Positions 32,037-32,740 are shown, counted from the first letter of the stretch. The stretch: 64,000 nt of DNA from Escherichia coli (GCF_051903065.1 NZ_CP178438.1), one strand, 5' to 3'. Numbers and translations: made by a program. The notes: generated by a model from the letters alone, not told the origin.

Positions 32037-32396
32037 TTATAAATGATTCAAACGCTCATTCAGTGTTTCAATAATATAGGTATTAACAGAGACTTGTTGC
32101 TGCGCAGCCGCATTATTAAGGCGTTCACTCAGCGATTCTGGATAGCGTAACGTAAAGGTCTTAATCTTTTCTGTACGCGCATACGGCTCAATACCCGCAG
32201 CTTTACAATCCTCAAGATACTCTCGCAGGGAAAGTTCCCCTTCTTTTTGCAGCCCCTGAATGCTGTCAGAGACAAAATCACAATAACCTGACAAGCCCAG
32301 GAATTTGCCACGAAATGCATTCAGTTCTGGCACGTAAGTGATAACAGCAGGTTGCCCGGCAATCTCCATAGAGTTTGGCGTCTTCAGTTTGATCAT
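32037..32396 (-). CDS. HicB-like antitoxin (RNase-H-like N-domain plus C-terminal ribbon-helix-helix)
   Basis: 119 aa; C-terminal TFTLRYPESLSERLNNAAAQQQVSVNTYIIETLNERL resembles CopG/RHH; 4-nt overlap with upstream partner. Confidence 0.6.
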   Translation of the reverse strand: MIKLKTPNSMEIAGQPAVITYVPELNAFRGKFLGLSGYCDFVSDSIQGLQKEGELSLREYLEDCKAAGIEPYARTEKIKTFTLRYPESLSERLNNAAAQQQVSVNTYIIETLNERLNHL

Positions 32397-32668
32397 GGTT
32401 TTACCCCTATACTTAGTAACCAGTCACGCACGCTTTCTACAGCGCCTTTATCGGTATCTGGCGACGGATGAGGCCGATGGAAACACGCAACGCTCATATT
32501 TAGTATGAACTTACAACGCGAACCTCTTCCTTCCTTAATTTCTCCGCCTAATTCTTTAACCAGTGACTCTATATCAGACCACTTGATCCCTTGAGGAACA
32601 GGAGTTTTAAATATTTGATCCAATGTATTTTTTTGTTTCTTCCGTAAAGCCTGTACCTTGGTTCTCAT
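32393..32668 (-). CDS. HicA-like (YcfA family) toxin
   Basis: 91 aa with a HicA-like G...GS(R/H)...HRPHP pattern; sits upstream of its partner, as in hicAB. Confidence 0.6.
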   Translation of the reverse strand: MRTKVQALRKKQKNTLDQIFKTPVPQGIKWSDIESLVKELGGEIKEGRGSRCKFILNMSVACFHRPHPSPDTDKGAVESVRDWLLSIGVKP

Positions 32669-32740
32669 GGCATGTCCTTATGACTTCACTTTATGACATC
32701 AATAGTATGACATCACAGTATGAAGTCAAGTTTCCCTTCC
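32669..32740 (-). promoter_or_regulatory. Candidate promoter/operator of the hicAB-like pair with four 12-bp iterons
   Basis: Four tandem copies of (T/G)TATGAC(A/T)TCA at about 32678-32728; outer copies TGACTTCA and TGAAGTCA are reverse complements; minus-strand TTGACT -35-like hexamer and AAGGA Shine-Dalgarno before the ATG. Confidence 0.45.

Follow-up and report, generated by a model that had tools for sequence, protein, structure and literature searches.

Organisation of the hicAB locus

Between yhhJ and nikR, the window (the whole 64-kb stretch of Escherichia coli DNA that was analysed) carries a two-gene cassette on the minus strand, hicA followed by hicB, preceded by a compact promoter region with four short repeats (Table 1). 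Both reading frames were read directly from the minus strand and agree with an ORF listing of 31800-33000. The spacer from the yhhJ stop codon (32741-32743) to the hicA start codon (32666-32668) measures 72 bp. On the other side of the cassette, nikR (31516..31917, plus strand) is convergent with hicB, with 119 bp between the two genes. The first-pass annotation had described two minus-strand ORFs of 91 and 119 aa that overlap by 4 nt behind a 72-bp spacer, and the ORF listing and coordinates agree with that description. The overlap of the hicA stop codon with the hicB start codon suggests that translation of the two genes may be coupled. The same arrangement recurs in other genomes: of 80 related loci, 76 have a hicB homolog immediately 3' of hicA, usually only a few bases away.

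Beyond hicB, between the two convergent genes, lies an AT-rich hairpin with the arms AACTGAACTTAATTT-tat-AAATTAAGTTCAGTT, for which the RNA fold is calculated at -22.6 kcal/mol (z -4.3). Its T tail is present only on the hicAB strand, and the element is a plausible terminator of hicAB. The flanks of nikR and hicB differ in an O157-like layout, where this hairpin is not retained. A search of Rfam found no RNA family in 31700-33000.

Table 1. Features of the hicAB cassette and its promoter region in the window
Feature	Position	Strand	Basis and remarks
hicA, HicA-family toxin of arginine type, 91 aa	32393..32668	-	G49-S50-R51, F63-H-R-P-H-P68, ~29-aa conserved N-terminal extension
hicB antitoxin, 119 aa	32037..32396	-	ORF; RefSeq WP_000593555.1; Pfam; AF2; Foldseek
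hicA/hicB overlap, 4 nt, ATGA	32393..32396	-	Sequence: hicA stop and hicB start
Shine-Dalgarno AGGA, 6 nt 5' of hicA ATG	32675..32678	-	Sequence
Operator box 4, TGAAGTCATA	32679..32688	-	Reverse complement of box 1 core; just 5' of ribosome-binding site
Operator box 3, TGATGTCATA	32692..32701	-	Pattern matches; covers predicted transcription start
Candidate -10 TACTAT	32702..32707	-	Consensus scan; overlaps 3' end of box 2, abuts box 3
Operator box 2, TGATGTCATA	32706..32715	-	Pattern matches; lost with the -10 in the common 14-bp-deletion E. coli allele
Operator box 1, TGACTTCATA	32719..32728	-	TGANNTCATA match; fits cross-genus consensus TGACTTCA
Candidate -35 TTGACT, inside box 1	32724..32729	-	Consensus scan
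Perfect 15-bp hairpin with T-rich tail, candidate hicAB terminator	31950..31982	-	Terminator scan; 55 nt past hicB stop

Family and fold of the two proteins

The 91-aa protein belongs to the HicA family. Its residues 30-80 match positions 1-52 of the 58 in the Pfam model HicA_toxin (PF07927; E 5.4e-9), and the same domain is present in all of its close homologs. The 119-aa protein matches Pfam HicB (PF05534; E 3.5e-15) over residues 60-112, and its C-terminus has weak matches to the ribbon-helix-helix (RHH) families Arc (0.018) and CopG_antitoxin (0.022) and also to FitA. These profile searches, which had been proposed along with the original reading of a HicA/HicB-like toxin-antitoxin pair, bear that reading out, as do the predicted folds of toxin and antitoxin, which match solved HicA and HicB structures. 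RefSeq likewise names the genes 'HicA family toxin' and 'HicB family antitoxin'. NCBIfam returned no match for either protein, nor did the anti-phage defence models of PADLOC at E up to 1. A single-sequence phmmer search of the PDB gave nothing relevant, and the toxin family profile gave a marginal HicA match only (9svk, E 0.09).

In the AlphaFold2 model of the toxin (75 homologs; pLDDT 97), two short N-terminal helices precede a1 (30-39), b1 (43-46), b2 (51-56), b3 (59-64) and a2 (74-86), which together form the dsRBD-like a1-b1-b2-b3-a2 fold of the HicA family. The HicA-like core GS(R/H)...HRPHP that had been picked out in this ORF is present as GSR...FHRPHP. The hicA allele of the window is full length with all conserved residues intact, and its product differs notably from the common E. 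coli protein only by A39E, other family members also having E at this position. Some public toxin homologs (Pectobacterium, Leminorella, E. coli) are mislabelled 'hexulose-6-phosphate synthase' and one 'uracil DNA glycosylase'; some antitoxin homologs (Dickeya, Photorhabdus) bear the public name 'DNA repair protein'.

The AlphaFold2 model of HicB has a pLDDT of 84 overall and of about 90 in the N-terminal part, which adopts the partial RNase H-like fold of HicB antitoxins (strands 9-12, 15-22, 27-32 and 40-43, helix 46-67). Foldseek relates this domain to Burkholderia pseudomallei HicB (6g26_B), E. coli 'HicB3' (6u0i), Yersinia pestis HicB3 (4p78_A) and 2dsy. A ribbon-helix-helix domain follows at about 79-118, with helices at 87-99 and 104-118; its strand is not formed in the monomer model, where pLDDT is about 70. 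Foldseek relates this tail to Arc (1b28, probability 0.93) and AtaR, and the Arc repressor aligns with residues 76-114. The Pfam matches, the modelled helices and the structural match to Arc thus concur with the C-terminal RHH segment noted in the first-pass annotation. Among the hicB homologs of the related loci, the RHH strand KTFTLRY shows little or no variation.

The locus is a standard type II module with an uncharacterised HicA variant, in the layout of Class 4 of Gerdes. Class 4 hicAB modules (Gerdes 2024, mBio 15:e03293-23, PMC10865869) have the same order, hicA and then hicB with a C-terminal RHH, often closely linked, and their HicAs divide into two clusters (PMC10865869). It is probable that the module is functional, that is, a chromosomal type II HicAB system which is autorepressed and in which HicB neutralises a toxin acting on RNA.

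An arginine in place of the catalytic histidine

A Gly-x-His motif at the b1-b2 turn is required in all tested HicAs, the catalytic residue being His28 in Y. pestis, His24 in B. pseudomallei, His36 in S. pneumoniae, His23 in E. coli, and His24 in both S. meliloti and N. gonorrhoeae (PMC11594946, PMC12297915, PMC6327479). The present toxin departs from the family in this feature. Its motif is G49-S50-R51, in which the glycine is kept and the histidine is replaced by arginine. The family profile aligns R51 with the histidine of the solved HicA 9svk (GGKVVAIRGSHYQW vs GgeikegrGSrvkv), and in the toxin model R51 opens strand b2, the start of which is the position of the catalytic histidine in tested HicAs (PMC12297915). 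E. coli K-12 HicA was rejected as a residue-level reference. With the family profile, both hhalign and hmmsearch placed helix a2 on a1, and because this alignment is spurious, the comparison of residues was based on the 9svk alignment and the model topology.

The substitution is not peculiar to E. coli. All of 34 close homologs, which reach Acidobacteriota and Azospirillum, have G49, S50 and R51. An exhaustive search of 1.84 billion cluster representatives (50% identity) recovered 1061 relatives at E up to 1e-3, and among the 143 best representatives of normal length position 51 is Arg in 138 and His in one. Within this set of 143 the FHRPHP motif is near-invariant (H64 in 141, P66 in 140 and H67 in 140, with P68 also near-invariant), and W30 and P23 of the N-terminal extension are conserved. 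The extension itself, TLxxIFxxPxxxxIxW, is absent from the HicAs of 58-66 aa. The top match of the representative search, P0121 (1981 aa), which scored E 7e-55 over 27 stretches, turned out to be a tandem repeat in translation (…STPPRGGRPPVPQGLRGANQVSIHAPAWGAT…) and was discarded as a low-complexity artefact that is no relative. Given the conservation of Arg and FHRPHP in the 143 representatives and the invariant GSR of the 34 homologs, Arg-type HicA is a large and coherent clade and not a dead copy.

Because the histidine essential to tested HicAs is absent, RNase activity is not simply transferable to the Arg-type toxin, and the arginine in its place, together with two near-invariant histidines after b3, means that the chemistry may differ from that of the tested HicA RNases. 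One form of such a difference would leave regulation and neutralisation of a real toxin-antitoxin pair unchanged, with the catalytic histidine moved to the post-b3 HRPHP loop and supported by R51, or with RNA or ribosome binding without canonical cleavage. The alignment of R51 with the GSH histidine of 9svk, its place at the start of b2 in the model, the frequencies of Arg, H64 and H67, and the conserved extension missing from the short HicAs are all in keeping with this proposal, as is the gonococcal HicA, in which a histidine after b3 is described as close in space to the catalytic one (PMC12297915). However, neither the fold nor the HicB partner is otherwise unusual, and RelE-type RNases make RNA cleavage based on Arg or Lys unexceptional, so the target could be the same; this alternative to a conventional module is considered unlikely. 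A wider proposition, put forward only tentatively, is that the Arg-type clade as a whole may have diverged in mechanism from the rest of the HicA fold, giving up the canonical catalytic histidine and placing catalysis or target recognition on R51, the invariant H64/H67 loop and the N-terminal extension.

A literature search found no study of this locus, of its accessions or of Arg-type HicAs, and no characterised PF05534 member paired with an Arg-type HicA. An O157 paper that mentions hicA does not identify the locus and cites only the K-12 HicAB literature. The survey of Gerdes (PMC10865869) does not discuss catalytic residues, and the words histidine, arginine and catalytic are absent from it.

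Distribution of the Arg-type clade

The clade comprises at least 1061 clusters at 50% identity. Its members are found on chromosomes, plasmids and phages, and one forms the tip of a CdiA-like exoprotein. This protein, P0237 (2052 aa), has haemagglutinin repeats (Fil_haemagg_2) and an Arg-type domain as its C-terminus; from its sequence it looks like an exoprotein of the CdiA/FhaB type with a HicA-like toxin tip. A second protein, P0142 (337 aa), also ends in an Arg-type HicA domain, its N-terminal 250 aa having no Pfam match. NCBIfam gave no match for the fusion proteins.

Mobile elements account for 223 plasmid records and 51 records of Ralstonia or Burkholderia phages. More specifically, Piscirickettsia plasmids contribute 89 records of the Arg-type hicA clade and Ralstonia solanacearum phages 49, and the gene is also carried by very small plasmids, such as those of Vibrio vulnificus (5.7 kb) and Vitreoscilla (12.8 kb). 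This distribution suggests a role of Arg-type hicA in plasmid or prophage maintenance. The CdiA-like fusion and the occurrence on plasmids and phages together argue that the Arg-type domain would be a working toxin.

The nikR-yhhJ interval and decay of hicA in E. coli

A 901-bp query spanning hicAB was searched at a coverage of at least 80% among 5426 complete E. coli genomes and was found in 2070 of them, always on the chromosome and always next to yhhJ. In K-12 the nikR-yhhJ interval contains rhsB, yhhH, a lyase pseudogene and yhhI (ISEc1 transposase), and hicAB is absent; the presence of rhsB there, as given in the first-pass annotation, is correct. The O157-like strain ERL04-3476 has hicAB together with a 5.8-kb island encoding GntR, PTS, FGGY-kinase and aldolase functions. 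When three layouts were compared (window 31918-32740; L002 5310-11998; L003 6155-12715), no sequence was common to them between the stops of nikR and yhhJ. The nikR-yhhJ interval is a replaceable cassette site and a hot spot of replacement.

Many E. coli genomes with the cassette have a damaged hicA. A 14-bp deletion that removes box 2 and the -10 is found in 787 complete genomes, and in this allele the second hicA codon is TAA. In the deletion allele, divergence is far higher in the 5' third of hicA than in the remainder, which suggests a recombinant mosaic. Other alleles carry Q26* and are annotated as 'internal stop' pseudogenes, a 1-nt frameshift exactly in the GSR codons leads to a 55-aa product on 588 contigs, and several further truncations were found in E. 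coli; example records with damaged hicA include NZ_CP051698.1 (L084) and NZ_CP103468.1 (L085), as well as L086 and L005. The four-box promoter is kept in about 1285 E. coli genomes. HicB is the same protein, WP_000593555.1, in 4 of 4 annotated RefSeq records examined. Repeated knock-out of hicA beside a constant HicB fits an intact toxin that would be costly to the cell.

The same observations may be read in another way, with the toxin inert or decaying in E. coli and HicB kept, either in the role of a small RHH repressor under its own control or as an antitoxin with an anti-addiction function when homologous cassettes arrive. The 787-genome deletion with its TAA codon, the Q26* alleles and the GSR frameshift, next to the identical HicB of the four records, are what would be expected from such a history. 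Yet hicA of the window is full length, its A39E is seen in other family members, repeated knock-outs are easier to explain if the intact gene is harmful, and strong conservation of the clade extends well outside E. coli. An inert toxin appears very unlikely, and a functional module remains the preferred reading.

Putative operator boxes and candidate promoter

Read on the minus strand, the spacer is cTTGACTTCATAc-tg-TGATGTCATAc-tat-TGATGTCATAa-ag-TGAAGTCATAa-ggacatgcc-ATG, with the boxes spaced at 13, 14 and 13 bp within 32679-32728. On both strands of the 64-kb window the pattern TGANNTCATA has exactly four matches, where about 1.3 are expected, and all four are on the minus strand in this short interval. 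The pattern TGAWSTCATA has three matches in the window against 0.32 expected, and three were reached in none of 100 shuffles. The clustering of the four boxes is not a product of chance. A candidate sigma-70-like promoter, TTGACT-16-TACTAT, is present at 32729..32702 with only 9 of 12 consensus matches.

These repeats had been described as four 12-bp iterons, the outer two being reverse complements of each other, which overlap a candidate -35 TTGACT. The four repeats themselves hold up as four non-random matches to TGANNTCATA; the reverse complementarity is found in the cores of boxes 1 and 4 (TGACTTCA and TGAAGTCA), and the -35 does lie within box 1. The term 'iteron' does not stand. Iterons are Rep-binding direct repeats at a replication origin, beside a rep gene. 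The present site is chromosomal, between yhhJ and hicA, and each of its repeats is quasi-palindromic and placed on a promoter; since the site has neither an origin nor a rep gene, the term is a misnomer and 'operator boxes' is used here.

Conservation of the boxes across genera

The upstream regions of hicA homologs were compared in a set of 80 loci encoding toxin relatives, one genome per species. In 59 loci, the density of TGAnnTCA is 9.2 per kb within the 120 bp 5' of the hicA homolog, compared with 0.30 per kb elsewhere. The boxes of Xenorhabdus, Pectobacterium, Cedecea and Buttiauxella are located at -71/-58/-32/-19 from the ATG, forming two pairs with a 13-bp spacing within each pair and 26 bp between the pairs. 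In Leminorella and Serratia the first three boxes lie one base closer to the ATG, the four boxes of Photorhabdus are at shifted offsets, and one or two boxes are retained in Sodalis, Pantoea, Erwinia, Budvicia, Ca. Fukatsuia and an Actinobacillus. The E. coli boxes are at -60/-47/-33/-20, with a gap of 14 bp between the pairs in place of the 26 bp seen elsewhere. The promoter is displaced accordingly by one box. In the Xenorhabdus-type genera box 2 includes the -35 TTGACT, and next to box 3 is an AT-rich hexamer that resembles a -10, whereas in E. coli the TTGACT of box 1 is the candidate -35 and TACTAT, between boxes 2 and 3, the candidate -10.

The cross-genus consensus of the boxes is TGACTTCA, in which T1, G2, A3, T6 and C7 are imposed by the search pattern and the centre is unconstrained; of the 52 boxes, 42 have C and 35 have T at the central positions, and 49 have A at position 8. 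Only two Escherichia-type loci among the 80 have nikR and yhhJ as neighbours, the other cassettes being placed in unrelated contexts. The same boxes in unrelated genomic contexts indicate that they travel with the cassette, and boxes that move with the cassette would most simply be the site of its own DNA-binding protein. This pattern of conservation supports the boxes as a putative operator for the RHH domain of HicB, and the TGA/TCA quasi-palindrome of each box would fit a two-fold symmetric RHH dimer.

The distant members outside Enterobacterales include no locus with at least three copies of a repeated 7-mer upstream, and the four-box design is therefore not general for the clade. A few distant hicA loci (L051, L073) have two identical 7-mers 13 bp apart just 5' of the ATG (-23/-10 and -27/-14), which echo the pair spacing of Enterobacterales with different sequences.

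The NikR operator is an inverted GTATGA-N16-TCATAC, with GTATGA/TCATAC as half-site. That the repeats are sites of another regulator, NikR or CRP, and not of HicB is hardly credible, for although boxes 1 and 2 end in the NikR half-site TCATAC, nikR lies 119 bp from hicB and encodes another RHH protein (Pfam RHH_1), and TGTGA precedes box 2, all four boxes have the same orientation when NikR needs an inverted arrangement, and the core that other genera conserve, TGACTTCA, lacks the TAC extension and has no nikR in its vicinity. A scan of 32669-32740 for GTATGA-N16-TCATAC found no NikR operator within two mismatches at the hicA promoter; the only zero-mismatch match in the window is a perfect palindrome, GTATGACGAATACTTAAAATCGTCATAC, at 26530-26557, upstream of nikA and the nik operon.

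A model for the module and comparison with known HicAB systems

The reading of the locus as a functional HicAB module draws on homology, fold, gene layout, repeats that are non-random and conserved across genera, and a patchy, mobile distribution. From these we infer binding of HicA by HicB, binding of HicB to DNA, toxicity and RNase activity. Under this model a single promoter, TTGACT-16-TACTAT, would drive hicA, with hicB translated from the same mRNA by way of the ATGA overlap. As in the solved HicAB complexes, HicB would pack its N-terminal domain on the face of the HicA beta-sheet and neutralise the toxin. The C-terminal RHH would dimerise, one dimer occupying each quasi-palindromic TGAnnTCA box, and bound HicB or HicAB would silence the promoter in an autorepressive loop. 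Together the four boxes extend over the -35, spacer and -10, over the start predicted near 32695 and over the 5' leader, so their occupation could shut the promoter off. The box spacing of 13-14 bp does not fit simple one-turn phasing, which counts against this model. If HicB were lost, free HicA would be expected to arrest growth, most likely through RNA.

Several known systems resemble the module in part. Y. pestis HicA3/HicB3 (4p78) has a toxin of 66 aa with catalytic His28, as opposed to 91 aa with arginine and an N-terminal extension here, and two 15-bp operators as opposed to four boxes of 8-10 bp; phmmer detects no sequence similarity between it and the present pair. In B. pseudomallei HicAB (6g26, 4c26), where Gly22 and His24 are essential, the corresponding motif here is G49-S50-R51, and structural alignments give 9-23% identity to the present pair. 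The HicAB system of K-12 (yncN/ydcQ; 6hpb) is at another locus and has a HicA of 58 aa with GSNH, for which profile comparison with the present toxin gives no meaningful alignment; its HicB has 138 aa and a C-terminal HTH, not an RHH, and its operon has two promoters (PMC10865869). The antitoxin fits the profile of PF05534 / COG4226-type HicB, homologs of which JGI names 'predicted HicB family RNase H-like nuclease', a family label only.

Significance

The toxin-antitoxin pair itself adds little, as RefSeq already names it and its layout is textbook. The value of the locus is in part a clean operator model, consisting of four TGAnnTCA boxes that recur in many genera, the promoter of E. coli being displaced by one box. 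The nikR-yhhJ junction is in addition a convenient natural series on the decay of chromosomal toxin-antitoxin modules. Its further value concerns the family. Arg-type HicA is a very large clade, for which no tested member was found, without the histidine on which mechanistic work relies, and the annotation 'HicA family toxin' thus hides a question of mechanism. If the clade is indeed mechanistically separate within the HicA fold, it would have a substrate or chemistry unlike the translation-independent mRNA cleavage of the short His-type HicAs.
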